Program-made: the position numbers and the translations under genes
The notes under the pieces: model-generated
Told to the model about the DNA's origin: nothing
Database searches by the model: none
The model's input: the letters and a program-made list of their open reading frames with translations, nothing else
Assembly (NCBI RefSeq): GCF_022985615.1
Contig: NZ_CP094965.1
Span: forward strand, 1-32,000
Length of the DNA: 32,000 nt
From: Candidatus Karelsulcia muelleri
GTDB lineage: Bacteria; Bacteroidota; Bacteroidia; Flavobacteriales; Blattabacteriaceae
Reading direction: 5' to 3'
In this document: in pieces, positions 7,665 through 32,000 of the stretch
How the letters are laid out: each line of letters begins with the position of its first letter
How positions within the stretch are numbered: the stretch's first letter is position 1

Positions 7665-7916
7665 TCTATTTATTTTATATAAAATTTGTTAAGATTATAT
7701 AAATATAATATATAATTATTCTTAGAATTATAATTATTATTCTTATAATTATTATAATTATAATTCTAATTATTATAATAGAATAGAATTATTAGAATTA
7801 TTATAATAGAATTAGAAAGAATTAGAATTCTCATATAATAATAATAATCTAATAATCTCCTAATCTAATCTCCTAATCTCCTAATCTAATCTCATAATAT
7901 AATATCATATCATAAT
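7665..7916. repeat. Low-complexity repeat spacer between divergent rho and prfA (ataattataatt / ttattctta / aatctcct motifs)
   Basis: Direct reading. aatctcctaatct motifs recur at 7851-7895, and ataattataattctaatta motifs are shared with 12330-12365. Confidence 0.75.
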
Positions 7917-9745: not shown

Positions 9746-9759
9746 TCTTGATCTTATCT

Positions 9760-9820
9760 AAGATCTAAGATATCTTAAGATCTAAGATATCTTAAGATCT
9801 AAGATATCTTAAGATATCTT
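9760..9820. repeat. 17-bp tandem repeat (aagatctaagatatctt x3.6) made of two palindromes, AGATCT and AAGATATCTT
   Basis: Direct reading: copies at 9760-9776, 9777-9793 and 9794-9810, plus a partial copy at 9811-9820. Confidence 0.9.
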
Positions 9821-9828
9821 AATATTCA

Positions 9829-11449: not shown

Positions 11450-12252
11450 ACTCAGAATATTTATTTTTTAAAATTTTAAATTATGATTCCTTCTTAAATA
11501 ATATCTTTATAGATTATATCAAACAATCTAGCGATTATTTTAGTATAAAAAATAATGGGAATATCTTAGTAAAAAATCTTAAATTAACACCTATATATAT
11601 AACTTATATAAGAAACAATTGTTTGAATATTAAATATATCTCTCAATCTGGGTTTATCTTTATTAAGAAAGGAGTGGATAGAAATCGAAAGTATTTATTA
11701 TATAAAAAAATATTTATATATAATAATAAAGGGAATCTAATTCCAGGGGTATTAATTCCTACTAAAAAAAAACAAATGAAAATAGATATTGGAACTAAAG
11801 ATTTAAAAGAAGTATATTCTTTAGGTATTAATTTAGGAGCTAAAGTAGTATTACAAGAAGATTTTTCAATATTTAATAAATATTTATTAAGTAATGAAAT
11901 TACCAATAAAATTGGTTTATTTATTCTTTGGGAGCTTCTAAGTTTAAAAAACAAAAGAAAAATAAATTTTATGCTTATAAAAGATAAAAATACTAAATTA
12001 TACTTCATGAATTACTTAAGTTTTTTAAGAAATAACAAATTAAAAATTATCGATTTGTTTCTCAAAAAACCTCTAGGTTGTGAATTAATAGATTGTTGTA
12101 AAACAAATCATATAAAGATTCAAATCTTGAAAACAATAAAAAAGATACATTATATTATAAATATAAATATCAAATATTTAAAAACCCCAATAGAAATGAT
12201 TTTAAAGTCAGAAATAGAAAAAATAATTAATTTAATAATTATATTAATATAA
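11434..12252 (+). pseudogene. Degenerate M42-family (glutamyl aminopeptidase / endoglucanase-like) peptidase homologue with metal ligands replaced and no canonical full-length start
   Basis: The frame is open from 11434, whereas the ORF track starts at TTG 11623. It is collinear with the remembered M42 pattern: GN(I/L)(I/L) = NNGNILV, AHxDExGF = TYIRNNCL, I..GFI.F = ISQSGFIFI, G.I.GVI = GNLIPGVL, DIG = KIDIG, WDNRIG = ITNKIG, QEEVG = KDKNT, RY.H.P.E = KYLKTPIE. Confidence 0.55.
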
Positions 12253-12402
12253 TATAATATGTTTCTATTCTTCTTATTATTATTATTCTTATTATTCTTA
12301 TTAGAGTTAAAATTCCAATTCTAGTTATAATTCTAATTAATTATTATAATTATAATTATAATTACTTTTAATTCTAATAAGTAGACTTATTCTAAAAAAA
12401 AA

Positions 12403-12516
12403 GGTTAAGGTTAAGGTTAAGGTTAAGGTTAAGGTTAAGGTTAAGGTTAAGGTTAAGGTTAAGGTTAAGGTTAAGGTTAAGGTTAAGGTTAAGGTTAAGG
12501 TTAAGGTTAAGGTTAA
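12403..12516. repeat. (GGTTAA)19 perfect microsatellite
   Basis: Direct count: 114 bp, 19 perfect copies. Confidence 0.97.
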
Positions 12517-12545
12517 GGAAGGTTAAGGGAAAGGGAAGGTGAAGG

Positions 12546-12625
<80 letters not shown>

Positions 12626-12690
12626 GGGAAAGGGAAGGTGAAGGTTAAGGAAAAGGAAGGTAAGGTGAAAAGGTTAAAGGTTAAAGGTTA

Positions 12691-14046
12691 ATGTTTAATA
12701 TAGATAATAACGATACTATAACAGCTATAGCAACTCCACTTGGAGTAGGTGCTCTAGCTGTTATAAGAATTTCAGGACAATTAAGTTTTAAGATAATTGA
12801 TTTCATATTTAAACCAAAAATAAAAAATATAAAAAGCAGAAGAATATATTTGGGTTATATATATTCAAAAAATACTTTAATTGATAAAGTATTAATAAAT
12901 ATATTCAAATCCCCAAATTCATATACTGGAGAAGATATAATAGAAATATCTTGTCATGGATCTATATATATTCAAAATAAAATCTTAGATTTAATAATAA
13001 ATAATGGAGCTAGATTAGCTACTCGGGGTGAATTTACGTTTAGGGCATTTAAAAACGGAAAATTAGACCTTTATCAGGTAGAATCATTATTAGAATTATT
13101 TCATTCAGAGAATGAATTAGACCATAACTTAGCCTTAAATAATTTCAGAGGAAAGGTCTCTATAATTATAAAAAAGATAAGAAAAAAAATATTAACTCTA
13201 AATACTATTCTTGAATTTTGTATAGATTTTTCAGAGGAAGATATTAATAAAAAACATCTACTAGCTTTTAAGAAATTATTATTAAATCTAATAACCAAGA
13301 TTAAAGATTTAATTAATTCATTTAAATTAGGGCTTTTTTTTAAAAAAGGGATTGCTATAGCAATAATTGGTAAACCTAATGTTGGCAAATCTACATTATT
13401 TAATTTTTTATTAAAATCTGATAGATCAATAGTATCTAATAAATCTGGTACTACCATAAACTATATTGAAGAAAATCTCTATATAGATGGTATCAAATAT
13501 AGATTAATTGATAATGCTGGCATTAAAAAAAATACTCTAAATAAATTAGAATTAAAAGGAATAAAAAAAACAATTGAAAACATAAAAAAATCCGATATTA
13601 TAATGTATATAACTAATAATATAAATACTAAATATCTACATTTACAAAAATATTATAAATATTTCTTTAAAAAAGAAATAATATTTATTATTAACAAATG
13701 TGATTTGTTAAAAAAAAAAATAAAGATACAATCTAGTCCAATACTAATATCAGCAAAGTATGGAATTGGAATAAATTATTTATTAAATAAACTTAAAACT
13801 CTTAGTGAAAGATTTCTAAAAAATAATAATAAAACAATAATTACAAATGTTAGACATTACGAAGAATTAAAAAAAGCTTTATTTAAATTAAATAAAATTA
13901 AAGACCATATTCAAATAGGGATTGAACCTGAAATTTTATCTCTTCTATTAAAAGAAGCTAATTATAGTTTAGAGAAAATAATTGGGACTATAACTAATGA
14001 AGAAATATTAGTTAATATTTTTGATAGGTTTTGTATAGGAAAATAA
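12691..14046 (+). CDS. mnmE: tRNA modification GTPase MnmE (TrmE)
   Basis: 451-aa ORF with DTITAIATP.G.GA(L/I)AVIR(I/L)SG at the N-terminus, a G1 motif (GKPNVGKSTLFN) and the characteristic C-terminal FCIGK. Confidence 0.95.
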   Translation: MFNIDNNDTITAIATPLGVGALAVIRISGQLSFKIIDFIFKPKIKNIKSRRIYLGYIYSKNTLIDKVLINIFKSPNSYTGEDIIEISCHGSIYIQNKILDLIINNGARLATRGEFTFRAFKNGKLDLYQVESLLELFHSENELDHNLALNNFRGKVSIIIKKIRKKILTLNTILEFCIDFSEEDINKKHLLAFKKLLLNLITKIKDLINSFKLGLFFKKGIAIAIIGKPNVGKSTLFNFLLKSDRSIVSNKSGTTINYIEENLYIDGIKYRLIDNAGIKKNTLNKLELKGIKKTIENIKKSDIIMYITNNINTKYLHLQKYYKYFFKKEIIFIINKCDLLKKKIKIQSSPILISAKYGIGINYLLNKLKTLSERFLKNNNKTIITNVRHYEELKKALFKLNKIKDHIQIGIEPEILSLLLKEANYSLEKIIGTITNEEILVNIFDRFCIGK

Positions 14047-18371: not shown

Positions 18372-19336
18372 ATGCTAAATTTTAAAATTTTCCTTAAAAA
18401 ACTTAAGGACAAAATTGATTTAAAAAAAAAAAAATATATATAGCAGTAAGTGGTGGAGTCGATAGTTTAGTTTTATTAGATCTTTTTTTTAGAATAAAAG
18501 ATCTTAGAATAAAAGATCTTAAAATAGAAGTACTACATTGTAATTTTAAACTTAGAGGAGCAGAGTCCGAAGAAGAAGAAAATTTAATAAAAAAAATTTG
18601 TAAAAAAAAAAAAATACTTTTACATACTAAAAGTTTTAATATAAGAAAAAAGTCATCTAAGCAAATTTTGGCTAGAAAATTAAGGTATTTATGGTTTAAA
18701 AGAATGTTAAAAACAAATTATTTTAATTATATTGCTTTAGGTCATCATCTTAATGATTCAATAGAGACAATATTTATTAATCTGATCAGAGGTACAGGGA
18801 TAAAAGGGATAAAAGGAATAGGTTTTAAGAAAAAATATTTAATAAGACCTTTATTAGATTTTACTAAAACAGAGATTTTATCTTATGCAAAAACCAAGAA
18901 AATAAGTTGGATAGAAGACAGTAGTAATATAAATGAAAAATTTCTAAGAAATAAAATAAGAAAAATACTTAATAAACTATTAAGTAATGAAGCTTATTTG
19001 GGAATAAAAAAATCTTTTCATATTTTAAAAGATGAATGTTTAATGATTAATAATCATCTAAATATTATTAAAAAATATATTTTTTTAAAAAAAAATATAA
19101 AAGAAAAAACTTTAAGCTTAAAAAACTTATTTAATCTTCATCCCATGAAAATTTATTTATATAAAATCTTAAAAGATTATTATTTTAATAATATTAGAAA
19201 TTTGATGAAAATAATAATTTCTAAATCTGGGAAGAAAATAAATTCAAAAAAATCCTATTTTTCTATAAAAAAAAAAAATAAACAATTAATTTTATATCGA
19301 AATAAAAAATATGAAAAGAAAAATATTTCTAGATAA
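18372..19336 (+). CDS. tilS: tRNA(Ile)-lysidine synthase TilS, interrupted by a frameshift in poly(A)13 (18422-18434)
   Basis: ATG at 18372 opens MLNFKIFLKKLKDKIDLKKKK and stops at TAG 18441. The adjacent frame is open from 18419 to 19336 and carries the PP-loop IYIAVSGGVDSLVLL and then LGHHLND. The ORF track shows only 18668-19336. Confidence 0.8.
18491..18520. repeat. In-frame 15-bp tandem duplicate in tilS (RIKDL x2)
   Basis: agaataaaagatctt occurs at 18491-18505 and 18506-18520. Confidence 0.9.
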
Positions 19337-20444: not shown

Positions 20445-21898
20445 TAAGATTTAGCAAAAAATACTCTTTGTTTAGAAGAATTTTTACTATATATGCATCT
20501 TCCATTTTGTTTCTTCTTAATATAAGATTTACTTGGAATACATATTATAGAGGCTGACGTTTCTTTTTTTATTTTTTTTTCAATGGTGGTAGAACCATCC
20601 CAATGTGAATATACTATACCACCTTTAGTCTTAATTATTTGTTTAAAATCTTTATAATTATCAACCTTTATAATAAAATCTTTTTGTATTTTTACAGCTT
20701 TTTTTAAAAGGTTTTTTTGTATTTTTTTTAATAAAATAATTATTTTATTTTTGATATTTCTTATCTTATATTTTTTTCTTTTTCTAGTGTCTCTTCTGAA
20801 AACTTCAATATTGCCCTTTTCTATTTCTTTCTTTCCAATAGTTAACCTAATAGGGATTCCTTGAATATCGTATTCATTAAATTTCCATCCGGGTCTGTAA
20901 TTTTTGCGGTTATCATATTTAAATGGTATTTGTTTTTTTTTTAAGAAAATCATTAATTTAGAAACTATTATTTCTAAAATTTTAAAAGAATCAGTTTTTT
21001 GATAGATAGGTATAATAACTACTTGAATTGGAGCAATTTTAGGTGGAATAATCAATCCATATTTATCTGAATGAGTTAAAATGACAGCTCCAATTAATCT
21101 AGTAGAAATACCCCATGATGTCCCCCAAACATGTTTATATATTCCTTTTTTATTAATATATTTAACGTTAAAAGATCTTGAAAAATTTTTCCCTAAAAAA
21201 TGAGAAGTTGCGATTTGCAAGGCTTTACCATCAGGCATAATAGCTTCTAAACAGTATGTAGTTTTTGCTCCAGCAAATTTTTCAAGATTTGTTTTTCTAC
21301 CTTTTATTACTGGAATTGATAAAATATCTTCAATAAAATATTTATACAAATTCAAAATTTGTTTACAATGCCTTATAGCTTCTTTTTTAGTTGAATGAGC
21401 TGTATGTCCTTCTTGTAAAAAAAACTCTGAGTTTCTTAAAAAGAATCTAGGTCGTATTTCCCAACGAATTGTATTAGACCATTGGTTTAATAATATAGGT
21501 AAATCTCTATAAGATATTATCCATCTTTTAAAAGAATCCCAGATTATTGTCTCAGAAGTAGGTCTAATAATTAGTTCATTTTTTAGTTTTGATTCTTTTT
21601 CAAGAATCAATTGATTGTTTTTAAATTTTAAACGACTATGTGTTACAATTGCACATTCTTTTGCAAAACCTTTAATATGATTATATTCTTTTTTTATATC
21701 AGACTTCAAAATTAATAATGGAAAATAAAAATTATTATGTCCAGTTTTTTTTAAAATATAATCTAATTTTTTTTTAATGTTTTCCCATATCTCTAAACCA
21801 TAAGGTTTAAAGATAATACAGCCTCTTATACCTGAATCTTCTGCTATATTAGCTGTTAAAATTATATCTTTATACCAATTTTTAGACCTTAAGCCCAT
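20441..21898 (-). CDS. proS: Prolyl-tRNA synthetase (archaeal/eukaryote-like type)
   Basis: 485-aa ORF with RPTSETIIW..F..WI.SYRDLP, F.RN.EFF.QEGHTAH and a C-terminal ...AKSY ending in Tyr. Confidence 0.93.
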   Translation of the reverse strand: MGLRSKNWYKDIILTANIAEDSGIRGCIIFKPYGLEIWENIKKKLDYILKKTGHNNFYFPLLILKSDIKKEYNHIKGFAKECAIVTHSRLKFKNNQLILEKESKLKNELIIRPTSETIIWDSFKRWIISYRDLPILLNQWSNTIRWEIRPRFFLRNSEFFLQEGHTAHSTKKEAIRHCKQILNLYKYFIEDILSIPVIKGRKTNLEKFAGAKTTYCLEAIMPDGKALQIATSHFLGKNFSRSFNVKYINKKGIYKHVWGTSWGISTRLIGAVILTHSDKYGLIIPPKIAPIQVVIIPIYQKTDSFKILEIIVSKLMIFLKKKQIPFKYDNRKNYRPGWKFNEYDIQGIPIRLTIGKKEIEKGNIEVFRRDTRKRKKYKIRNIKNKIIILLKKIQKNLLKKAVKIQKDFIIKVDNYKDFKQIIKTKGGIVYSHWDGSTTIEKKIKKETSASIICIPSKSYIKKKQNGRCIYSKNSSKQRVFFAKSY

Positions 21899-21929
21899 TA
21901 TATAGATATATTAGATTTATATTTATATT

Positions 21930-22065
21930 TAGATCTAGATCTAGATATGATAGAGATCTAGAGAGAGATGATAGAGGAGATCTAGATATAGATAGATAGA
22001 TATCTTAGATCTGATAGCTTAGATCTGATATCTTAGATCTAGATATAGATAGATTAGATTAATTA
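21930..22065. repeat. AGATCT/GATAG-rich degenerate tandem repeats upstream of proS
   Basis: Direct reading: agatct recurs at least 7 times, interleaved with gatag(a) and atatcttagatctgata units. Confidence 0.8.
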
Positions 22066-22117
22066 ATTAACAAATGAGTTAGTTAACTAATTGAATTTAG
22101 TTAACTAAACTTAGTTA

Positions 22118-22264
22118 TTGAATTTAGTTACTCAACTCAAAGGAAACGAAACTAATTGAATTTAGTTACTCAACTCAAACGAAACTAATTGAATTTAGTT
22201 ACTCAACTCAAAGTAAACGAAACTAATTGAATTGAATTTAGTTAACCAACTCAAAGTAAACTAA
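22118..22264. repeat. 33-38-bp tandem repeat x4 (ttgaatttagttactcaactcaaa[g][gaaa/gtaaa]cgaaactaa)
   Basis: Copies lie at 22118-22155, 22156-22188, 22189-22226 and 22227-22264 (the last is degenerate). Confidence 0.9.
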
Positions 22265-22303
22265 TTAACTAATTGAGTTGAGTTAACAACTAAAACTAAC
22301 CAA

Positions 22304-22323
22304 CTAACTAACTAACTAACTAA
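22304..22323. repeat. (CTAA)5 microsatellite
   Basis: Direct count. Confidence 0.9.
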
Positions 22324-22372
22324 TTAAGAAGTAAAGTATATAATAAAGTATATAATAGGAATAGGAAGTAAG

Positions 22373-22480: not shown

Positions 22481-22564
22481 GTTTAATTATATAGATGTTT
22501 AATTATATAGATTAATTATATAGATTAATTATATAGATTAATTATATAGATTAATTATATAGAT
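22481..22564. repeat. 16-bp x2 then 13-bp x4 tandem repeat ((gtt)taattatatagat) upstream of htpG
   Basis: Direct reading: units at 22481-22496, 22497-22512, 22513-25, 22526-38, 22539-51 and 22552-64. Confidence 0.9.
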
Positions 22565-22600
22565 TGTATTATAAGCTTAATAGCATAACAAAAAAGAAAT

Positions 22601-24403
22601 ATGGAAAAAGGAAAAATAAAAGTTACAGCAGAAAATATATTCCCTATAATTAAAAAATTTTTATATTCATATAATGAAATCTTTTTAAGAGAACTAATAA
22701 GTAATGCAGTTGATGCATGTGTTAAAATAAAAACTTTAGCTAATTTAGGAAAATTAAAGATTCAAGTTAATAAACTAGAAATAGAAGTAAAAGTAGATAA
22801 AGATAATAAAATATTAAGAATAGAAGATAATGGGATAGGAATGACAAGAGAAGAAGTAAAGAAATATATTAACCAAATAGCTTTCTCAAGTGCCGAAGAA
22901 TTTCTTAAAAAATATAAGACTGAGGATGCAATTATAGGTAATTTTGGTTTAGGTTTTTATTCTTCTTTTCTTGTTTCAGATAAAGTAGAAATACTTACCA
23001 AATCATACCAAAAAGGAATTAACCCAGTCCATTGGCTTTGTGATGGAACACCTAATTTTATATTACGAGATGCAAAAAAAGAAAAAATAGGTACTGTAAT
23101 TTTATTACACCTAAATGAAAAATTCCAAGAATTTTTAGAAGATTATAAGATACTTGAATTGTTAAAAAAATATTGTAGGTTTATCCCAATTCCTATAAAA
23201 TTTAATAATAAAATAATAAATAATACACAACCTCTATGGAAAAAAAAATCTCTTGAAATTAAGGAGAAAGAATATAGATCTTTTTATAAAGAATTATTTC
23301 CAGAAATTTTAGAGGATCCATTATTGTGGATACATTTGAATATTGAACATCCTTTTAAGTTGACAGGCATTTTGTATTTTTCTCAACTAACTAATCCAAT
23401 GGATCTTAAAAAAGATAAGATTCATTTATATCAAAATCAAGTTTTTGTTACTGAACATTTGGAAGGTATAGTTCCAGATTTTTTAACTTTTTTAAAAGGT
23501 GTAATAGATTCTCCAGACATTCCACTTAATGTTTCAAGATCACATATAAAATCAAATATAACTTTAAAAAAAATTTCTAATTATATTACTCGGAAAATTG
23601 CAGACCGACTCACGAAAATGTTCTTAAAAGATAGAAAGTCTTTTGAAAAAAAATGGAAAAATATAAAACTAATTATAGAATATGGTATGATAAGTGAACC
23701 AATATTTTATGAAAAATCTAAAGCTTTTGCATTATATAGTGATATCAATGGAAAATATTTTTTATTTTCTGAATTCTTAGAAAAGATAAAGAAAAAGCAA
23801 AAATCAAAAGAAAATAAAATAATTTGCTTTTATGCTACTAATTTAGATGAGCAAAATATTTATATAGAAAATGTTTTACAAAAAGGTTATAAAGTATTAT
23901 TACTAGATAGTCAATTAACAGTTCATTTGATACAAAAACTAGAAACGGATATTAATAATCTTTCTTTTGTCCGAGTGGATTCACAAAATATAGATAATCT
24001 TTTTATGGAAAAAAAATGTACTAATCTTACTCAGCAAGAAAAAAATACCTTGAAAAAGGAAATAGGGAAAACCATCGACAAAAAAAAATTTAAAATTAAA
24101 TTCGAAAACCTAAATGAAAATTATCTACCTTTTATAATAAATATACCAGAATTTATACGCCGTATAAATGAAATGAATTTAATGAGAAAAGAAAAAAACT
24201 ATTCTAATTATAATTTAGTTGTAAATACCAATAATAAAATTATAAAAAGAATATTGATAGAAAAAAAAAAGGAAATTAAAAACAAAATAATAAGAGACTC
24301 ACTAGAATTTATATTACTTTGTCATAATCTTTTAAAAAGAAAGAACAAAAATCGTTTAATAAAGAAAATATTAGAAAATATATGTACTTGCTATAAGATT
24401 TGA
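22601..24403 (+). CDS. htpG: Molecular chaperone HtpG (Hsp90)
   Basis: 600-aa ORF with the GHKL ATPase N-terminus (FLRELISNAVDA, IEDNGIGMT, IGNFGLGFYS). It ends in TGA. Confidence 0.95.
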   Translation: MEKGKIKVTAENIFPIIKKFLYSYNEIFLRELISNAVDACVKIKTLANLGKLKIQVNKLEIEVKVDKDNKILRIEDNGIGMTREEVKKYINQIAFSSAEEFLKKYKTEDAIIGNFGLGFYSSFLVSDKVEILTKSYQKGINPVHWLCDGTPNFILRDAKKEKIGTVILLHLNEKFQEFLEDYKILELLKKYCRFIPIPIKFNNKIINNTQPLWKKKSLEIKEKEYRSFYKELFPEILEDPLLWIHLNIEHPFKLTGILYFSQLTNPMDLKKDKIHLYQNQVFVTEHLEGIVPDFLTFLKGVIDSPDIPLNVSRSHIKSNITLKKISNYITRKIADRLTKMFLKDRKSFEKKWKNIKLIIEYGMISEPIFYEKSKAFALYSDINGKYFLFSEFLEKIKKKQKSKENKIICFYATNLDEQNIYIENVLQKGYKVLLLDSQLTVHLIQKLETDINNLSFVRVDSQNIDNLFMEKKCTNLTQQEKNTLKKEIGKTIDKKKFKIKFENLNENYLPFIINIPEFIRRINEMNLMRKEKNYSNYNLVVNTNNKIIKRILIEKKKEIKNKIIRDSLEFILLCHNLLKRKNKNRLIKKILENICTCYKI

Positions 24404-25896
24404 CATTCCATATTATTATAATTATCGATTTTAATAAGTTTTACTTCTTTAAATTTATTGATAAGATTAGGTTTCCATTTAATTTTTGACCTAATGTAGG
24501 TATCTGTAAAACCAAAAATATACCCATTTTTATTTGTTTTTTCAAACAATACTCTATAATGATTAAAAAGATTTTTTAAACAATAATTTTTATTTTTTTG
24601 TTTCGAAAGTAATCTAATAATTTTACTGCGTTTGTAACGCAGAATTTTTGGGATAGTTTCTTTCATAAAATATGCGTCTGTATTTTCTCTTTCTGAATAT
24701 GGAAAAACTTGAATATAAGCTAATTCTAAACTTTTTAATAAATTATAAGTTTCTAAAAAGTTAGATTCTTTTTCGCCCGGAAAGCCTACGATTATATCAG
24801 TCCCTACACAAGCCTCAGGTATAATATTTAATATTTTGTTAACCTTTTTAATATATATTTTTACATTATACCTTCTTTTCATCTTATTTAAGATATAATT
24901 ACTACCTGATTGTAGTGGTAAATGAAAATGAGGAACAAAGATCTTACTTTTTGAAATGAAATTTATTATTCGATTATTTAATAAATTAGGTTCAATAGAA
25001 GAAATTCTTATACGAATTTTGTAATTTATTTTTTGTTCAATTTTATTTAACAAATAAAACAAATCGTATTTTTTTTTATTAAATCCAAAATTTACAAAAT
25101 TTCCAATATTTATACCAGTTAGAACAATTTCTTTAATATTTAGTAAAGCTAGTTTTTTTATAGTCTTTATAATATTATAAATATTTTCTGATCTAGATTT
25201 CCCTCGAAGATTTGGAATAGGACAATAACTACATTTATAATCACATCCATCTTGGATTTTTAGAAAAGATCTCGTACGTGTTTCATTCAATGAAACTGAA
25301 GAATTATAATAATAAGTAGAGTTATAATTATAATTATAATAAGTAGAGTTATAATTATAATTATAATAAGTAGAGTTATAATTATAATAAGTAGAGTTAG
25401 AGTTAGAATAAGAAGTAGAGTTATAATAAGTAGAGTTAGAGTTAGAATAAGAAGTAGAGTTAGTAGAGTTAGTCTTAGCCTTAGCATTAAGAGCAAGAGC
25501 AGTTTTATTTTTTAACTTTAAATAATAAGGTAAATAAAATTTATCTTTAGTTCCAAGTATCAAATTAACATTTTTTAAAATGTTTTCTGTATTTTCTGTA
25601 TTATTTTCTGTCTTATAAATATTTTCTGTCTCTGTCTTATATAATTTCTGCGGAAAACATCCCAATAGGATTATGTATGCATTTTTATTTGTTTTTTTAA
25701 TCTTTCTAATTAAAAGAAAGAAATCTTTTTCTGCATTTTCAGTAATAGTACACGTATTTATTATATAAATATTTGCAAACGTATCCCAAGATACGTATTG
25801 ATAGCCTAAATTTAATAAATTTCTCTTTATTGTAGAGTATTCAGAATAATTTAGTTTACATCCGTAAGTAATGAAAGAGAATCTTAATTTTTCCAT
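24391..25896 (-). CDS. mtaB: tRNA (N6-threonylcarbamoyladenosine37) methylthiotransferase MtaB (radical SAM MTTase) with a large S/T/N/Y insertion
   Basis: 501-aa ORF with TYGCKLNYSE, a radical-SAM block (FLKIQDGCDYKCSYCPIP..RG.SRS), IRISSIEP, HLPLQSGS and a C-terminal TRAM-like end. It overlaps the htpG end by 13 bp. Confidence 0.88.
   Translation of the reverse strand: MEKLRFSFITYGCKLNYSEYSTIKRNLLNLGYQYVSWDTFANIYIINTCTITENAEKDFFLLIRKIKKTNKNAYIILLGCFPQKLYKTETENIYKTENNTENTENILKNVNLILGTKDKFYLPYYLKLKNKTALALNAKAKTNSTNSTSYSNSNSTYYNSTSYSNSNSTYYNYNSTYYNYNYNSTYYNYNYNSTYYYNSSVSLNETRTRSFLKIQDGCDYKCSYCPIPNLRGKSRSENIYNIIKTIKKLALLNIKEIVLTGINIGNFVNFGFNKKKYDLFYLLNKIEQKINYKIRIRISSIEPNLLNNRIINFISKSKIFVPHFHLPLQSGSNYILNKMKRRYNVKIYIKKVNKILNIIPEACVGTDIIVGFPGEKESNFLETYNLLKSLELAYIQVFPYSERENTDAYFMKETIPKILRYKRSKIIRLLSKQKNKNYCLKNLFNHYRVLFEKTNKNGYIFGFTDTYIRSKIKWKPNLINKFKEVKLIKIDNYNNMECQIL
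25301..25500. repeat. About 200 bp of in-frame tandem repeats inside mtaB (periods 27, 27, 21, 24, 15, 24 bp)
   Basis: aagtagagtt recurs at 25314, 25341, 25368, 25389, 25413, 25428 and 25452. On the minus strand it encodes ...STYYNYNYNSTYY.... Confidence 0.9.
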
Positions 25897-25989
25897 TTCT
25901 AAGTAAGTAAGTGAAAAAAGGTAATCTTAATATATTAATATTAAGATTAATATTAATAGATTAAGAAGCAAATAAAAAATAAAAAAATA

Positions 25990-26343
25990 ATGAAAAATAT
26001 TAATATTAATATTAATATTAATAAATATTTATCAGTAAAATCAGGAAAATATAAAAAAAAATATGTCTTTAAAGCAGGAGATACAGTAAATGTAGATTAC
26101 GAAATTAAAGAAGGTGATAAAAATAGAATACAATCTTTTAAAGGTATAATAATTAAAAAGCAAGCAAATAGTACATTTACAATTAGAAAATTTAGTGGAA
26201 CAATTGGTGTAGAAAGAATATTTCCCATAAATTCACCTATTATTAAAAACATTAAAATTATTAGTTCTGGAAAAGTTAGAAGATCAAAAATTTATTATTT
26301 GAGAAACTTAAGAGGAAAACAAGCTAAAATAAAAAGCATATAA
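25990..26343 (+). CDS. rplS: 50S ribosomal protein L19
   Basis: 117-aa ORF with GDTVNV...EG.K.RIQ.F.G..I......FT.RK...G.GVER.FP..SP and GKVRR.K.YYLR. The N-terminus carries (AATATT)4 at 25996-26019, encoding NININININ. Confidence 0.93.
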   Translation: MKNININININKYLSVKSGKYKKKYVFKAGDTVNVDYEIKEGDKNRIQSFKGIIIKKQANSTFTIRKFSGTIGVERIFPINSPIIKNIKIISSGKVRRSKIYYLRNLRGKQAKIKSI

Positions 26344-26354
26344 AATAATAAAAT

Positions 26355-28169
26355 ATGGCTTTTCAAATTACTAATGAATGTATAAATTGTGGAGCTTGTG
26401 AATTAGAATGTCCAAATAATGCCATTATTAATAATAATGCCATTAATAATGCCATTAATAATGCTATTGCCATTAATAATGCCATTGCCATTAATAATGC
26501 CATTGCCATTAATAATGCCATTGCCATTAATAATGCCATTAATGCCAATAATGATGCCATTTATGAAAGTAAAGAGAAGAAAGAGAAGAAGAATAGGTAT
26601 TTTATAGTACCAGAGAAATGTACTGAATGTATTGGTAAATATGAAAAGCCTCAATGTGTGACAGTATGTCCAGTTAATTGTATAAAAAAGTATAAAAGTA
26701 TAAAAAAAGAAAAAAGAAAAAAGAAAAATAATAAAATTTCTTTTAAAGAAATTGTATCACATGCAAAACAATATGGCTTTGTTTTTCCTAGTAGTGAAAT
26801 CTATGATGGCATAAATGCAATTTATGATTATGGTCAATATGGAATATATTTAAAAAATAATATTAAAGAATACTGGTGGAAATCAATGATACAAATTAAT
26901 GAAAATATAATTGGATTGGATACTAGTATATTAATGCATCCTAATATCTGGAAAGCTTCCGGTCATGTTTATAAATTCAAAGAAATATTTTTATATAATG
27001 AAGATACTAAATATAGTTACCGACTTGATTTATTTCTCGAAAATTATTTCCAAGAAAAAAATATTAGAAATAAAGAAAAAAATCTAAAAAATAATCTTAT
27101 AAAATATATATATAAAAAATTTAAAGAAAATGATAAAGAGAAAATCTTAAGATTAATAAATAAAATTAAGAGTAAGAAAAACTTAAGGAAATGGACTAAA
27201 ATATATGAGTATAATTTAATGTTCAAAATACCATTAAAAGAACATGAAAAGAAAAATTTTTATTTACGTCCAGAAACAGCACAAGGAATTTTTACCAATT
27301 TTTTAAATGTCCTAAATACTAGTAAAATGAAAATCCCATTTGGGATAGCTCAAATAGGAAAAGTGTTTAGAAAGGAAATAATAGCTAGACAATTTCTTTT
27401 TAGAATGCGAGAATTTGAACAAATGGAAATGCAATTTTTTATTTTTCCTAATCAGGAAAAGAAATGGTTGGAATACTGGAAAAACAACCGTCTAAAATGG
27501 CATTTATCATTAGGATTAGGTGAAAAAAAATATAGATTTTATGAACATGAACAATTAGCACATTATGCTAAAAAGGCATATGATATTCAATTTAAATTTC
27601 CTTTTGGTTTTAAAGAATTAGAAGGGATTCATTCAAGAACAAATTTCGATCTTAAAAATCATGAAAAATATAGCAAAAAAAGATTTAGAGTTTTTGATAA
27701 AGAAAAAAACAATTTTTCTATTCCATATATAATAGAAACTTCTGTTGGATTAGATAGGATTTTTTTAGCAGTTTTTTCTTCATCTTTAAAGAAGGAAACA
27801 ATTAAAGACACAAAAAAAGAAAGAATTATATTAAAAATTAATCCTGCTTTATCTCCAATTAAAGCTGCTATCTTTCCTTTAATTCAAGACAAAAGGTTAA
27901 TTTCTTTAGCTAAAGAAATTTATAAAAAATTAAAATTAGATTTTATTTTAATATATGAAGAAAAGGATTCGATTGGTAAGAGATATAGAAGACAAGATGC
28001 TATAGGGACTCCAATTTGTGTAACAATAGATTTCAAAACTTTAAAAGATAAATGTGTAACTATGAGATTTAGAGATAAAATGTTGCAAAAAAGGGTATTA
28101 ATTAAAGATTTAAAGAGGGAAATTAAAAAAGAAACCAGTATGAAAAAACTGTTTCAGTTACTTAGATAG
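26355..28169 (+). CDS. glyQS: Single ORF fusing a 2x[4Fe-4S] ferredoxin domain (about 26355-26684) to glycyl-tRNA synthetase (homology from about 26736)
   Basis: The ferredoxin part has CINCGACELECP and CTECIG....PQCVTVCPVNC. The GlyRS part has SHAKQYGFVFPSSEIYDG..A.YDYG, YLRPETAQGIF, F.RMREFEQME and ETS.GLDR. Between the two parts there is no stop codon and no ATG, GTG or TTG. Confidence 0.85.
   Translation: MAFQITNECINCGACELECPNNAIINNNAINNAINNAIAINNAIAINNAIAINNAIAINNAINANNDAIYESKEKKEKKNRYFIVPEKCTECIGKYEKPQCVTVCPVNCIKKYKSIKKEKRKKKNNKISFKEIVSHAKQYGFVFPSSEIYDGINAIYDYGQYGIYLKNNIKEYWWKSMIQINENIIGLDTSILMHPNIWKASGHVYKFKEIFLYNEDTKYSYRLDLFLENYFQEKNIRNKEKNLKNNLIKYIYKKFKENDKEKILRLINKIKSKKNLRKWTKIYEYNLMFKIPLKEHEKKNFYLRPETAQGIFTNFLNVLNTSKMKIPFGIAQIGKVFRKEIIARQFLFRMREFEQMEMQFFIFPNQEKKWLEYWKNNRLKWHLSLGLGEKKYRFYEHEQLAHYAKKAYDIQFKFPFGFKELEGIHSRTNFDLKNHEKYSKKRFRVFDKEKNNFSIPYIIETSVGLDRIFLAVFSSSLKKETIKDTKKERIILKINPALSPIKAAIFPLIQDKRLISLAKEIYKKLKLDFILIYEEKDSIGKRYRRQDAIGTPICVTIDFKTLKDKCVTMRFRDKMLQKRVLIKDLKREIKKETSMKKLFQLLR
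26415..26561. repeat. In-frame 12-bp and 18-bp tandem repeats within the ferredoxin domain (NNAI / AINNAI units)
   Basis: gccattaataatgccatt occurs 4 times at 26469-26540, preceded by aataatgccatt units. The ORFs that the track reports in three other frames are by-products of this repeat. Confidence 0.92.
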
Positions 28170-28238
28170 ATAGATATGATCACAGCAACTGTTTCAGTTA
28201 CTTAGCAACTGTTTCAGTTACTTAGATATGATCACAGC
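28147..28238. repeat. Junction duplication: the glyQS 3' end (19 bp x3) interleaved with the tRNA-Arg 3' end (13 bp x2)
   Basis: aactgtttcagttacttag occurs at 28147, 28187 and 28207. atatgatcacagc occurs at 28174 and 28226. Confidence 0.92.
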
Positions 28239-28301
28239 AGGAGTCGAACCTGCAACCTACTGCTTAGAAGGCAGTTGCTCTATCCATTGAGCTATGTGAC
28301 C
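28229..28301 (-). tRNA. tRNA-Arg (TCT)
   Basis: The reverse complement folds as a 73-nt cloverleaf: acceptor ggtcaca/tgtgatc, anticodon loop cttctaa, T-loop ttcgact. Confidence 0.88.
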
Positions 28302-28305
28302 AATA

Positions 28306-28380
28306 TCGGGATGATAGGATTCGAACCTATGACCTCCTGGTCCCAAACCAGGTGCGATAACCTTTCTACGCCACATCCCG
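28306..28380 (-). tRNA. tRNA-Pro (TGG)
   Basis: The reverse complement folds as a 75-nt cloverleaf: acceptor cgggatg/catcccg, anticodon loop tttggga, T-loop ttcgaat. Confidence 0.88.
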
Positions 28381-28389
28381 TTTATTGTA

Positions 28390-28470
28390 CGGAGAGTGTG
28401 AGATTCGAACTCACGAGGTAAAAACCTACAGTTTAGCAAACTGCTCCGTTAACCACTCCGGCAACTCTCC
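28390..28470 (-). tRNA. tRNA-Ser (GCT)
   Basis: The reverse complement folds as an 81-nt class II tRNA: acceptor ggagagt/actctcc, anticodon loop ttgctaa, with a long variable arm. Confidence 0.88.
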
Positions 28471-28476
28471 ATAATA

Positions 28477-29730
28477 TTAAATAATGATTCTACTTTTTAA
28501 TTCAGCCAAATATTTTTTCCAATTATTTATTTTCTTTTTAGCTACACCTGATTTAATTGCTGCTTTAGCTACTGCAATTGACACGTTTATCATAAGTCGA
28601 GGATCAAATGGTTTAGGAATTATATAATTTTTCCCAAATTTAATATTTTTTTCATTATAAAGAAGACTTACTTTTTTAGGTACAGGTTCTTTAGCTATCT
28701 TAGCTATTGAATATAGAGCCGCTAATTTCATTTCTTCATTTATTGAGGTCGCCTTAACATCTAAAGCCCCTCTAAAGATATAAGGAAAACATAAAGCATT
28801 ATTTACTTGATTTGGATAATCACTTCTACCAGTTGCTATAATAATATCTGAACGTGTTTTTAGAGCTTTGTGGTATTTAATTTCTGGATTTGGATTTGCT
28901 AAAGCAAATATTATAGGGTTCCTCGACATACTCATTAACATTTTTTTTGTTAATATATTACCAACAGATAAACCAATAAATACATCAGAATTGATAATTA
29001 TTTCTTCTAATTTGGTATAAGAAGTTTTAACACAAAATTCTAATTTTTCTTTTGTCAATTTTTTTCTACTATTATTTAGTACTCCGTGACTATCACACAT
29101 AAAAATGTGTTTAACCCCAAGTTTCTTATAAATTCTGCCACAAGAAATTGCTGCAGCTCCTGCTCCATTAATAACCATTTTAATATTTTCTATTTTTTTA
29201 TTTACTAATTCTAAAGCATTAATTAATGCAGCACCGGAAATTATGGCAGTTCCATGTTGGTCATCATGCATTACTGGAATATTTATTTTTTTTAATTCTT
29301 TTTCTATTTTGAAAGCTTCAGGAGATTTAATATCTTCTAAATTTATACCACCAAATGTTGGGGAAATTGATTTTACAATTTCAATAAACTTTTTTGGGTC
29401 TTTTTCCTTAATTTCTAAATCAAAAACATCTATATCAGCAAAAATTTTAAATAATAATGCTTTACCTTCCATAACTGGTTTAGATGCTTTTGGTCCAATA
29501 TCACCTAAACTTAATACAGCAGTCCCATTAGTAATAACTCCCACTAAGTTTTTTTTATTTGTGTATTTATATACTTTGTTTTTATTCTTAATTATTTCTT
29601 TACATGGTTCAGCTACTCCAGGGGAATAAGCATAAGATAAATATTTAGGTGAGTAAAATTTTTTACTTGGAATTATTTTAATTTTGCCAGCTGGATATTT
29701 ACTATGATAGTATAAAGCTTTTTGTTTCAT
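28477..29730 (-). CDS. maeB: NAD(P)-dependent malic enzyme (short form, malic-enzyme domain only)
   Basis: 417-aa ORF with YSPGVAEPC, VITNGTAVLSLGDIGP.ASKPVMEGKALLFK, HDDQHGTAI and NGAGAAA. Confidence 0.9.
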   Translation of the reverse strand: MKQKALYYHSKYPAGKIKIIPSKKFYSPKYLSYAYSPGVAEPCKEIIKNKNKVYKYTNKKNLVGVITNGTAVLSLGDIGPKASKPVMEGKALLFKIFADIDVFDLEIKEKDPKKFIEIVKSISPTFGGINLEDIKSPEAFKIEKELKKINIPVMHDDQHGTAIISGAALINALELVNKKIENIKMVINGAGAAAISCGRIYKKLGVKHIFMCDSHGVLNNSRKKLTKEKLEFCVKTSYTKLEEIIINSDVFIGLSVGNILTKKMLMSMSRNPIIFALANPNPEIKYHKALKTRSDIIIATGRSDYPNQVNNALCFPYIFRGALDVKATSINEEMKLAALYSIAKIAKEPVPKKVSLLYNEKNIKFGKNYIIPKPFDPRLMINVSIAVAKAAIKSGVAKKKINNWKKYLAELKSRIII

Positions 29731-29859
29731 TGTTTGTATATATACTTATTAATATAAACTTTATTTTATAGTTAGTTAAATTATTCTTTTAAAAGAAATA
29801 AATATTGAATTAGGTACGATATTATTATTTTTTATGTATTTTTTAGAACTCTTTATAAG

Positions 29860-29963
29860 AATATATAATATATAATATAATATTATATTAATATTAAAAT
29901 ATATAATATAATAATATATATAATAATATGATATAATTATATATAATATATTTTATATTTTAT
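29860..29963. repeat. About 104-bp A/T-only tract (single G at 29928) of ata/tat palindromic micro-repeats, upstream of maeB and downstream of der
   Basis: Direct reading. Confidence 0.85.
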
Positions 29964-29983
29964 ATCGGTTAAAGTGAACATAC

Positions 29984-31318
29984 CTAACTGATTCTTTGAT
30001 TCTTTACTTTATATTTGTTTTTAAATTTAATTTGAATCGGGATTCCAATTAGATCAAAATTAGACCTTATTTTTTTTTCTAGAAATCTTTTATAAGACCT
30101 AGGAATAAGTTTAGGATTATTGCTAAAAAAAAGGAATTTCTTAATACCTTTTTTTAAAATTGGTACGCAATATTTTATAGAAAGATTTCTACCATTACTT
30201 AAATTTATTGTTTTTTTTTTTAATATCGGAAGCATAATTTTATTAAAATAACTTGTATTTATTTTTTGTTTTTGCTTTTTTATTATACTTATTGCTTGAT
30301 TAAAAGCTTTAATAATATTTTGTTTGGAAAAATTAGATGTGAAATATATTGGCAGATCTGTAAATGGATAAATTTTTTTAATAATATTTTGTTTTAAATT
30401 TTGTAAAATACTCTTTTTTTTAATAAGATCACATTTATTAATTAATATAATAATACCTTTAAAGGTATTTTTAATAATTTTAAATATCTTTATATCTTGT
30501 TTTTGAAACCCTATTTTAGTATCTATTATTAAAAAACATAAGTCAGAATTGTAAATTGCTTGAGTCGTTCGAAGAAATGAAAAGTATTCGAGATCTTCCT
30601 TTTTTCTTTTCTTTTTTATTATCCCAGCAGTATCAATCAAAATACATTTAAAATTAAATTTATTATAAATTACTTCTATGCAATCCCTAGTAGTACCTGG
30701 AAGATCACAGACTATGCTTTGATTTTTATTTAATAAGGTATTAATTAAAGATGACTTGCCTACATTTTTCCTTCCTACTAAAGTAATCCTAGGTAAATTG
30801 TAATTTTTTAATTTAATTAATATTTCTTTTTTATTAGAAAAAATATAATTTAATAATTCGTTAACCCCTTGTCCAGTTGAACCAGATAAAAAAAAATAAT
30901 CATTAAATCCTAATTTTAAAATATCTTGTATTTCATAAATATCTGATTTATATTGATCAATTTTATTAACAGCTAGAAAAACTTTTTTTTTTGATCTTTG
31001 TAAGATATTAGATATCTTATAATCTATAGGTAATATTCCAGATAAAATATCTATTACAAATATTACATCGGTTGATTCTTCAATAGCAAATAAAAATTGC
31101 TCACATATTTTAATTTGTAAATCTTTCTTTCCAATTACATATCCTCCAGAATCTATCAGAGTAAACTTATTACCTTTCCATTTACAATCACAATATATCC
31201 TATCTCTGGTAACTCCACTCGAATAATGAGTAATTGCTTTACGGTAGCCTGCTAAATAATTAAAAAGGGTAGATTTTCCTACATTAGGCTGGCCTACTAT
31301 AGAAATTATTTTTTTCAT
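29984..31318 (-). CDS. der: Ribosome-associated GTPase Der (EngA)
   Basis: 444-aa ORF with two tandem G domains (GQPNVGKSTLFN and GRKNVGKSSLIN, each followed by DT/SGG and NKxD) and a KH-like C-terminus. Confidence 0.93.
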   Translation of the reverse strand: MKKIISIVGQPNVGKSTLFNYLAGYRKAITHYSSGVTRDRIYCDCKWKGNKFTLIDSGGYVIGKKDLQIKICEQFLFAIEESTDVIFVIDILSGILPIDYKISNILQRSKKKVFLAVNKIDQYKSDIYEIQDILKLGFNDYFFLSGSTGQGVNELLNYIFSNKKEILIKLKNYNLPRITLVGRKNVGKSSLINTLLNKNQSIVCDLPGTTRDCIEVIYNKFNFKCILIDTAGIIKKKRKKEDLEYFSFLRTTQAIYNSDLCFLIIDTKIGFQKQDIKIFKIIKNTFKGIIILINKCDLIKKKSILQNLKQNIIKKIYPFTDLPIYFTSNFSKQNIIKAFNQAISIIKKQKQKINTSYFNKIMLPILKKKTINLSNGRNLSIKYCVPILKKGIKKFLFFSNNPKLIPRSYKRFLEKKIRSNFDLIGIPIQIKFKNKYKVKNQRIS

Positions 31319-31345
31319 GACTAGTTGAAAAAATTAATAATTTAA

Positions 31346-31533
31346 ATTAAAATTCCGATTGTAGGTACTGGGAATATTGGTGGTGCTTGTGCAAGTTTAA
31401 TAGCTGCTAAGGATATAGTTAATAATATTATTTTGTTAGAATATGGTTTAAATAATGTTTTCTTAGGTATCCCAGTAATTTGAGTAAAAAAAGGAATATT
31501 ATTGAATTAAAACTTAATAAAGAATTTAATTAG
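31346..31533 (+). pseudogene. mdh: Malate dehydrogenase relic: the N-terminal about 31 codons joined to about 30 C-terminal codons, with an in-frame TGA and a frameshift
   Basis: 31346-31483 translates as IKIPIVGTGNIGGACASLIAAKDIVNNIILLE-YGLNNVFLGIPVI*. After the A7 run, the next frame reads NIIELKLNKEFN*. This matches remembered LDH-like MDH termini: MKVTVVGAGNVGA.CA....VVLLD at the N-terminus and EGEYG.ND..IGVP.IIGKNGVE.I..I.LN..E at the C-terminus. Confidence 0.7.
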
Positions 31534-31540
31534 ATAATAT

Positions 31541-32000
31541 TTAAATAATATGTTTATAGGCATTATAAGAACTTCTAACTAATGGATTGCTTTCAACATA
31601 TAAAAAGCCCATTTCTAAAGCTAGATTTTTGTAGTATTTAAATTTATGAGGCGTAATAAAGCTTTGAACTGGGTAATGTTTTGAAGTAGGGGCTAGATAT
31701 TGACCTATTGTTAATATATCAATATTGGCTTTTTTTATAGCTTTCAAAGTATTTATTACTTCTACTTCTGTTTCACCTAATCCTAGCATAATACCAGTTT
31801 TAGTTCTTATGTCGCTTTTTTTTTTTATATATTTTAAAATAGATAAGCTTCTATCATATTTAGCCTGAATACGTACTTTTTTTGTTAATCTAGGTACAGT
31901 TTCTAAATTATGAGAAATAATTTCTGGGTGTTCCTTAATTATTAGTGCAATTTTTTTTTTATGCCCTTTAAAATCTGGTATTAAGGCTTCTATAGTCGAA
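31541..32000 (-). CDS. lipA: Lipoyl synthase LipA (C-terminal part; the 5' end lies beyond the window)
   Basis: The reading frame is open from the window edge to the stop at 31541. Its translation is ...STIEALIPDFKGHKKKIALIIKEHPEIISHNLETVPRLTKKVRIQAKYDRSLSILKYIKKKSDIRTKTGIMLGLGETE.... The track lists only the part from Met 31789. Confidence 0.9.
   Translation of the reverse strand, partial: STIEALIPDFKGHKKKIALIIKEHPEIISHNLETVPRLTKKVRIQAKYDRSLSILKYIKKKSDIRTKTGIMLGLGETEVEVINTLKAIKKANIDILTIGQYLAPTSKHYPVQSFITPHKFKYYKNLALEMGFLYVESNPLVRSSYNAYKHII

Follow-up and report, generated by a model that had tools for sequence, protein, structure and literature searches.

An inherited in-frame fusion of a ferredoxin gene to the glycyl-tRNA synthetase gene in Sulcia of fulgorid planthoppers

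The window analyzed here is a stretch of 32,000 nucleotides from Candidatus Karelsulcia (Sulcia) muelleri (contig NZ_CP094965.1, positions 1 to 32,000) with a G+C content of 22%. Its rplS gene is followed on the same strand by a single open reading frame (ORF) of 604 codons, closed by a TAG stop, in which a ferredoxin (gene fdx) runs through a Lys-rich linker into a glycyl-tRNA synthetase (GlyRS, gene glyS; Table 1). The limits of this ORF were taken from the ORF listing and from direct reading, and both domains are recognized by Pfam and NCBIfam profiles. An earlier note on this DNA, made from the sequence alone, had described a single in-frame ferredoxin-GlyRS ORF, and the profiles bear this out. 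The predicted fdx-glyS product has 604 amino acids, a mass of 72.0 kDa and an isoelectric point of 9.7. Its best protein matches belong to Sulcia genomes of 140-157 kb, and its GlyRS part is identical to UOQ38117.1 / WP_246980492.1, encoded by a genome of 156,326 bp. In what follows L082 to L092 are locus labels of the compared Sulcia genomes, and P0010 and P0122 are protein labels.

Table 1. Coordinates of the features of the rplS-fdx-glyS locus in the window, and state of the fdx/glyS junction in ten other Sulcia genomes
Feature	Position	Strand	Basis or remark
rplS (L19)	25990..26343	+	ends 11 nt upstream of the fdx ATG
Fused ORF fdx-glyS	26355..28169	+	ORF listing, Pfam, NCBIfam
ATG of ferredoxin	26355..26357	+	A at -3, -6, -12
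Ferredoxin moiety, aa 1-109	26355..26681	+	Pfam, NCBIfam, Cys motifs
In-frame tandem repeat, period 6/12/18, NNAI/AINNAI units	26420..26561	+	
GTG (V102)	26658..26660	+	between third and fourth Cys of second motif
Lys-rich linker, aa 110-127, IKKYKSIKKEKRKKKNNK	26682..26735	+	direct reading, codon scan
(AAAAAAG)x3.7 perfect tandem repeat over the former stop/start junction	26703..26728	+	
AAG (K123), former glyS ATG position	26721..26723	+	N-terminal alignment
ATT (I128)	26736..26738	+	start of the RefSeq model; A at -3, -6, -12
GlyRS moiety, full length, alpha2/dimeric type	26736..28166	+	Pfam, NCBIfam, alignment
L082			fdx TAA abuts glyS ATG, in frame: ...GAA AAA TAA ATG AAA AAT AAT AAA ATT TCT...
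L083			fdx/glyS overlap of 1 nt (TAATG)
L084	CM132438.1, 1952-2011		ferredoxin core deleted; 18-codon remnant ORF MALKITNCPVNCIKTNDK* overlaps glyS ATG
L085, L086, L087, L088, L089			fdx/glyS overlap of 11-14 nt
L090 (Oliarus polyphemus OPOL-1)	CP110505.1, ~1998-2001		ferredoxin gone; rplS stop 2 nt before glyS ATG
L091 (287-kb genome)			3-nt spacer between fdx stop and glyS ATG

Three Sulcia genomes of 155.8-156.7 kb are available from Pyrops planthoppers (Fulgoridae), obtained with short and long reads (PMC10333215), and the window belongs to one of them. In the sister Pyrops genome CP094964.1, 451 bases across the whole ferredoxin and the junction are identical to the window, and over 9.4 kb the two sequences differ by 12 substitutions and 12 repeat-length indels. 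The protein model of the third Pyrops genome (P0122) runs from the GTG codon through the linker with one Asn-to-Lys change. The fusion is also found in CM132443.1 (L092, 152,970 bp), a separate deposit whose nucleotide divergence from the window is 2-3%. The linker of L092 (...AGT ATA AGT ATA AAA AAA ATA AAA AAG AAA AAT AAT AAA ATT) differs in sequence from that of the window but is of equal length and in frame, contains no canonical start and carries AAG at the old ATG position. The fusion is inherited, being shared by the three Pyrops genomes and CM132443.1. It is real and specific to one Sulcia lineage, that of fulgorid planthoppers (Pyrops and a relative).

The ferredoxin half carries two cluster motifs, CINCGACELECP (residues 9-20, C9-P20; 26379-26414) and CTECIGKYEKPQCVTVCP (residues 89-106, C89-P106; 26619-26672). 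They follow the CxxCxxCxxxCP and CxxCx8CxxxCP patterns of YfhL/Alvin-type ferredoxins, and all eight Cys (8/8) and both Pro are kept in all fused genomes. Pfam places Fer4/Fer4_7 matches at residues 6-24 and 9-109, and the corresponding NCBIfam family is NF033683 (YfhL-family di-[4Fe-4S] ferredoxin). The score on this profile is 67.4 bits for the native sequence and 84.2 bits after removal of the internal repeat, so that the family cut-off of 86 is not reached, while the 115-amino-acid ferredoxin of a 287-kb Sulcia scores 100 bits. The repeat-free sequence covers profile positions 1-70 of 80, the last ~10 positions being lost. The (NNAI)n repeat lengthens the loop between the two motifs by about 40-50 residues: this loop measures 68 residues in the window, as against 28 for L092 and 17-23 for planthopper relatives without the fusion. 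Unfused relatives lack the insert and L092 shows only its beginnings, indicating that the fusion is older than the repeat expansion. The closest solved relatives are the ferredoxins of A. vinosum (1BLU) and P. aeruginosa (2FGO) and E. coli YfhL (2ZVS), with E-values of 4e-12 to 2e-7. These proteins share both cluster motifs. However, they are free-standing, of about 80 amino acids, and end in a C-terminal helix, whereas in the window the last ~10 profile positions give way to the Lys-rich linker, a low-complexity insert of ~45 amino acids occupies the loop, and the whole is joined to an enzyme. By motif and profile, the ferredoxin half derives from the YfhL/Alvin family but is shortened at its end and enlarged by an insert.

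The GlyRS half scores 564.3 bits on the GlyRS equivalog profile NF003211 (cut-off 312), residues 131-589 matching profile positions 2-453 of 454, and 427 bits on TIGR00389 (cut-off 243). The class II core (tRNA-synt_2b, PF00587) lies at residues 296-475 and HGTP_anticodon (PF03129) at 504-592, and residue 4 of the T. thermophilus enzyme aligns to ORF residue 129. On these matches the GlyRS half is a full-length member of the dimeric (alpha2, eukaryote-like) glycine--tRNA ligase family. All family-invariant columns (more than 120 in 35 aligned GlyRS) are retained. In Tajima relative-rate tests the GlyRS of the window and those of unfused sisters have similar counts (for example 14 vs 14, 17 vs 11 and 15 vs 14); the comparisons with P0010 alone are nominally significant (p ~0.04, uncorrected). 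The ratio of non-synonymous to synonymous substitution rates (dN/dS) of glyS against L092 is 0.50, a value resting on few differences (7.5 synonymous and 17.5 non-synonymous) and lying within the spread of neighboring genes (0.07 to 1.5, all with very little divergence). Judged by residue conservation and rate, the GlyRS moiety is intact and evolves no faster than in the unfused sisters. We propose that it still serves as the working glycine-tRNA ligase of the cell.

Eleven of the 18 linker residues are Lys or Arg; the segment combines the C-terminal tail of the ferredoxin with the first codons of glyS. Its frame 0 holds neither a stop nor an ATG, GTG or TTG, while frame +2 has TAA TAA at 26729-26734. 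Programmed frameshifting or readthrough was considered and ruled out since no stop between fdx and glyS needs to be bypassed. From 26355 to 26862 the only canonical in-frame starts (ATG, GTG or TTG) are ATG 26355 and GTG 26658. The claim of the earlier note that no such codon separates the ferredoxin core from the GlyRS homology is thus correct, the GTG that it did not mention lying inside the last Cys motif. Of the non-canonical starts that it offered, ATT 26736 is exactly the RefSeq start of WP_246980492.1, and ATA 26682 is indeed in frame, whereas the second in-frame ATA is at 26700 rather than 26697. Its expected masses of about 70 kDa for the fusion and about 55 kDa for a separate synthetase need a small adjustment: 72.0 kDa is computed for the fusion and 57.9-61.0 kDa for the internal starts, with 503 amino acids (61.0 kDa) predicted from GTG 26658 and 477 (57.9 kDa) from ATT 26736.

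Bacteroidia initiate translation without Shine-Dalgarno pairing and favor A at -3, -6, -12 and -13 as well as a start codon that begins with A (PMC6847099). Start contexts were judged by simple base identities at -3, -6, -12 and -13; a weight matrix derived from 15 window genes was over-fitted and was dropped. Of the canonical starts, the ferredoxin ATG alone has a context that suits Bacteroidia. GTG 26658 corresponds to an ancestral Val codon, also found in unfused relatives, and has a poor context (U at -3, C at -6). The sequence upstream of ATT 26736 is 84% A. A sigma-70 promoter scan was uninformative (16 sites vs 18.8 expected, none of them on the plus strand between 26355 and 26736), and an Rfam scan found tRNAs only, with no RNA element at the fdx-glyS junction.

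Three incompatible gene models are public for this one locus, and the ferredoxin is missing from the proteome in two of them. The GenBank model, chosen by the depositors for the Pyrops genomes, has 503 amino acids from GTG 26658 (UOQ38117.1). The RefSeq model has 477 amino acids from ATT 26736 (WP_246980492.1, 'MSFKEIVSH...'), a start that the NCBI pipeline took in three Pyrops genomes. Both are identical to the window. For CM132443.1 the whole fusion is already in RefSeq as a 'glycine--tRNA ligase' of 564 amino acids (WP_455345346.1), without comment.

The rplS-glyS locus was compared in ten other Sulcia genomes (L082-L091). The earlier note had proposed such a comparison of the junction, and it separates four fused genomes from eight of the ten others, which keep a ferredoxin of 67-115 amino acids as a separate gene directly before glyS. 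The unfused genomes (L082, L083, L085-L089 and L091) resemble the window in the gene order rplS-fdx-glyS, a conserved and tightly packed unit in Sulcia, in the ferredoxin Cys motifs and in GlyRS itself (83-91% identity among L082-L089, 62% for L091). They differ in that a stop and an ATG part two proteins (67-115 and 480-495 amino acids) where the window has one ORF of 604 amino acids. The frame offset between fdx and glyS varies among the unfused lineages (0, +1 or +2), and in every lineage seen glyS stands directly behind an upstream ORF, with no room for a separate leader. None of 80 listed free-living Bacteroidota loci has a YfhL-type ferredoxin within 4 kb of glyS, so that the adjacency is not seen outside Sulcia in this sample. 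In L088 the second Cys motif of the ferredoxin is 4 residues shorter (CAECIGNPCVKVCP) and the protein has no Pfam match.

The two remaining genomes have no ferredoxin gene. In L084 the remnant joins the start and the tail of fdx in frame, and the neighboring MiaB-like gene is also lost. In L090 (CP110505; PMC10030309) no trace of the ferredoxin is left and the MiaB-like gene is kept. From the structure of these two loci, the ferredoxin is lost at least twice among planthopper Sulcia, indicating that it is dispensable there.

The former position of the glyS start can be located in the window. The Met of unfused GlyRS (MKNNKISLKE in P0010) aligns to K123 (KKNNKISFKE). Among the unfused relatives L086 and L087 are nearest to the window, and their ferredoxins have the same tail (...CIKKYK). 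The distance from the last Cys codon to the glyS ATG position is 28 nt in L086/L087, where the frames are offset by 1, and 42 nt in the window, where they coincide. Relative to L086/L087 the junction has thus gained about 14 nt, in the form of a GTATAAAA duplication and the (AAAAAAG)x3.7 repeat. Such events are not confined to the fused genomes: L083 (2756-3001) has a duplicated ferredoxin N-terminus (MYKITKEC twice) and a 16-nt duplication including the glyS ATG, and L088 (1787-2014) has an 18-nt unit containing the glyS ATG in three copies (NKINNE x3). Judging from these duplications and the repeat of the window, the fdx-glyS junction is a recurrent slippage site. The supposition that the ferredoxin stop and the glyS start were lost together agrees with their adjacency or overlap in the relatives (TAAATG, TAATG and longer overlaps). 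However, the small junction deletion put forward as the cause is not supported, since ~14 nt were gained by tandem-repeat slippage and the ATG now reads AAG; the outcome is nonetheless what such a deletion would have produced.

The minimal history suggested by these comparisons comprises a frame-merging repeat slippage that removed the stop, plus an ATG to AAG change. In the ancestor, a yfhL-type ferredoxin gene and glyS would have stood so close together that the stop lay against the glyS ATG or overlapped with it; translation of the pair was presumably coupled. A slippage-type duplication in the A-rich junction would then have put fdx in register with glyS, with the stop gone. We infer that the fusion came first, while the ATG was kept and both products were possible, and that the ATG was changed to AAG afterwards. 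The reverse order would pass through a start-less essential gene, and the loss of the ATG would have been tolerated because the read-through protein already worked.

Our preferred reading, to which we give a probability of about 0.6, is that GlyRS is made from the ferredoxin ATG as a fusion of ~72 kDa that carries the ferredoxin as a passenger. Ribosomes starting at ATG 26355 would read through the 18-residue linker into GlyRS and, since no stop follows, every ribosome starting there must yield the 72-kDa fusion; we infer that this is the main translated product. The ferredoxin domain is probably a tolerated N-terminal passenger that may still bind clusters, and the fusion has the look of a chance product of genome decay that is tolerated, not of an enzyme with a purposeful design. 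The GlyRS family offers a precedent: human GlyRS residue 64 aligns to ORF residue 127 and the human protein has ~63 extra N-terminal residues, so that an appendage ending where the linker ends is tolerated in this family. Moreover, the ferredoxin is lost without replacement in L084 and L090, which argues that GlyRS does not need it.

Several observations weigh against this reading. Internal starts (ATT 26736 and GTG 26658) were chosen in RefSeq and GenBank for the three Pyrops genomes, the A-rich context of ATT 26736 is excellent, and near-cognate initiation is conceivable in Sulcia. A bulky, cluster-requiring and repeat-expanded N-terminal domain could hinder folding. The AlphaFold2 model of the 604-amino-acid ORF, computed on the alignment of 35 GlyRS sequences, is poor, with a mean predicted local distance difference test score (pLDDT) of 61.7 and a predicted template modeling score of 0.55; pLDDT is below 50 for residues 1-25 and 69-158 (in the ferredoxin and the linker), and the compatibility of the domains is not readable from it. 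Finally, the fused genomes have diverged too little from one another for selection on the ferredoxin, or on the upkeep of the frame in the linker, to be visible (window vs L092: 1 synonymous and 5 non-synonymous differences in fdx).

The same polypeptide could have a greater role. The only ferredoxin and the only GlyRS of the cell might form one obligatory bifunctional protein with two [4Fe-4S] clusters, acting both as electron carrier and as synthetase, which we consider unlikely. In that case the ferredoxin would reduce nearby radical-SAM enzymes, the Lys-rich linker could strengthen tRNA binding and the supply of glycyl-tRNA would be coupled to the Fe-S or redox status. The enzyme encoded by korAB is a likely partner of the ferredoxin. 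These genes have been lost from all known planthopper Sulcia but strain RANSCY (PMC10333215). Possible remaining clients are a MiaB-like radical-SAM enzyme, whose gene lies nearby (24391-25896), and a putative LipA at the end of the window, a tentative label for a protein with a Pfam Radical_SAM match only.

The most substantial competitor of the 72-kDa product is internal initiation at ATT 26736, ATA 26700 or GTG 26658, the ferredoxin frame having simply no stop of its own and the full-length fusion being a minor or useless by-product. ATT 26736 stands at the onset of the GlyRS homology (profile position 2 of the NCBIfam model is residue 131 and T. thermophilus residue 4 is residue 129), its A at -3, -6 and -12 and its 84% A upstream are the determinants described for Bacteroidia devoid of Shine-Dalgarno pairing (PMC6847099), and internal starts are the annotated ones, ATT by the NCBI pipeline in three genomes and GTG by the depositors. 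These models nevertheless appear to be heuristics, since the same pipeline annotated the whole 564-amino-acid fusion in CM132443.1. In the bacteria studied, ATT and ATA serve only very poorly as starts, which counts against them here, and GTG 26658, an ancestral Val codon, has an unfavorable context with U at -3 and C at -6. All these sites would also be crossed and occluded by ribosomes that started at ATG 26355. We therefore hold internal initiation to be possible but doubtful. A separation of the two proteins at the RNA level is a very improbable variant. Slippage of the RNA polymerase on the A6-A7 runs of the linker would shift a fraction of the transcripts to frame +2, where the ferredoxin would end at the TAA TAA exactly at the old junction and immediately before ATT 26736, which would recreate the ancestral coupled arrangement; the genome seems to rely on poly(A) elsewhere, in the A13 tract of tilS with its -1 frameshift (see below). 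However, appreciable transcriptional slippage usually needs runs of 9 or more A and those of the linker reach only 5-7, and GlyRS would still need a non-AUG start.

The fusion could instead be a step in the decay of glyS, start-less and on its way to loss, while the host or a co-symbiont would take over the charging of tRNA with glycine. Planthopper symbionts have commonly lost synthetases (PMC12992758; PMC10333215), five synthetase genes are already lost in Sulcia of Pyrops and Dictyopharidae (PMC10333215), and the genome has other lesions such as the tilS frameshift. Against this, the 477-codon frame is intact in four genomes at 22% GC, where stops arise easily, the family-invariant GlyRS residues are all kept with no acceleration relative to the unfused sisters, and glyS stays in frame with the upstream ATG. 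This makes decay quite improbable. Least credible of all is a sequencing or assembly artefact. A low-complexity, homopolymer-rich junction is error-prone, but this junction is identical in CP094964.1 and is spanned by the protein model P0122 of the third Pyrops genome, both short and long reads went into the Pyrops assemblies (PMC10333215), and the lost T's of TAA and ATG are not homopolymer-length errors. The separately deposited CM132443.1 is fused too, and a fused junction in several genomes, one of them diverged by 2-3%, argues that it is not an assembly artefact.

The earlier note did not recognize the architecture from any described synthetase, and no comparable case emerged from protein searches, the PDB or the literature. 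With the full-length query, the 120 best clusters from a search of 5.8 billion proteins included none that was fused except the clade's own cluster. With a repeat-free query made of ferredoxin, linker and GlyRS N-terminus, coverage did not exceed 60%, no match extended over both halves and none carried Fer4. No chain in the PDB matches both the ferredoxin and the GlyRS halves. The literature consulted, including the Pyrops (PMC10333215), Oliarus and 2026 planthopper papers, mentions neither the fusion nor the ferredoxin nor tandem repeats.

At the level of the ORF, the succession of ferredoxin, linker and complete core would correspond to a synthetase with an appended domain. Human GARS1 is similar in that an alpha2-type GlyRS carries an extra N-terminal domain on a linker. 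Its ~63 extra residues form what we take to be the WHEP domain, a helix-turn-helix module that binds RNA or protein and was acquired in eukaryotes. Here, in contrast, the appendage is an Fe-S ferredoxin apparently added by accidental read-through. The TrpRS of Thermotoga maritima, which we take to be an Fe-S cluster-binding aminoacyl-tRNA synthetase, likewise combines a synthetase polypeptide with a [4Fe-4S] cluster (putative in the window ORF), but holds it in the synthetase's own fold rather than in a fused dicluster ferredoxin domain. A parallel in process is provided by the fused or overlapping genes of extremely reduced symbiont genomes such as Carsonella, where the loss of intergenic space and of stops and starts in AT-rich, drift-dominated genomes also turns unrelated neighbors into chimeric ORFs. 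Since the relatives keep the two genes separate, adjacent and on the same strand, comparison of the loci indicates that the fusion is one of these accidental neighbor-gene fusions of reduced endosymbiont genomes. We know of no description of a ferredoxin paired with an aminoacyl-tRNA synthetase that persists across several host species.

Other lesions and repeats occur in the window. The tilS gene (18374-19336, +) has a -1 frameshift 17 codons in, with the lesion at 18422-18434: L092 reads TTAAAACAAAAAAAAATAT, and the window, which lacks the C, has an A13 homopolymer. Apart from this lesion the 321-codon tilS frame is undamaged, with its ATG and the SGGVDS PP-loop in place. This gene is a candidate for rescue by poly(A) transcriptional slippage, or for a homopolymer sequencing error. 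An ORF of 209 amino acids (11623-12252, +) matches only positions 86-155 of the 292-position profile of M42 glutamyl aminopeptidase and is probably a gene remnant.

Sulcia genomes are usually described as very stable and compact, and long tandem arrays are unexpected in them; nevertheless Tandem Repeats Finder returned 213 rows in these 32 kb, and the Pyrops paper (PMC10333215) does not mention such repeats. Intergenic micro- and minisatellites lie at 7694-7975, 9755-9822, 12401-12691, 21898-22360 and 22483-22581. Examples of arrays are (AAGGTT)x21.7, (AAGT)x10.8 and (AAGGTG)x15 just ahead of mnmE, as well as three copies of 33-43-nt units ahead of tRNA-Ser. In-frame expansions within coding sequences occur at 25300-25473 (-), 25996-26023 (+) and 26420-26561 (+). 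The second is an N-terminal (NI)n expansion of rplS, and the MiaB-like protein has a Ser/Thr/Tyr/Asn-rich insert of ~60 residues (501 amino acids vs 432-450 in relatives). From one sister Pyrops genome to the other, the coding repeats vary in copy number, by 36-39 nt and 6 nt. Behind glyS (28148-28239), the glyS/tRNA-Arg junction is tandemly duplicated, to a different length in the window than in CP094964.1: the terminal 18 nt of glyS (ACTGTTTCAGTTACTTAG) stand in three copies (28148, 28188 and 28208), and the 3' end of the convergent tRNA-Arg with 2 flanking nt (ATATGATCACAGCA) in two (28174 and 28226). Over 22652-32000, each of the 12 substitutions between these two genomes sets an A or T of CP094964.1 against a C or G of the window (A>C or T>G), an odd bias at 22% GC that could reflect a polishing or sequencing error in one assembly.

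The fdx-glyS locus provides a clean and datable example of how extreme gene packing and repeat slippage make one ORF from two unrelated genes of essential pathways in a 156-kb genome, and of how such a fusion is then inherited across host species. It is also a natural test of start-codon selection in Bacteroidia, which lack Shine-Dalgarno pairing, since GlyRS would have to be made either with a foreign N-terminus of 127 residues or from a non-AUG start. If the ferredoxin is still loaded with its clusters, this would be, to our knowledge, the first synthetase with a fused ferredoxin.

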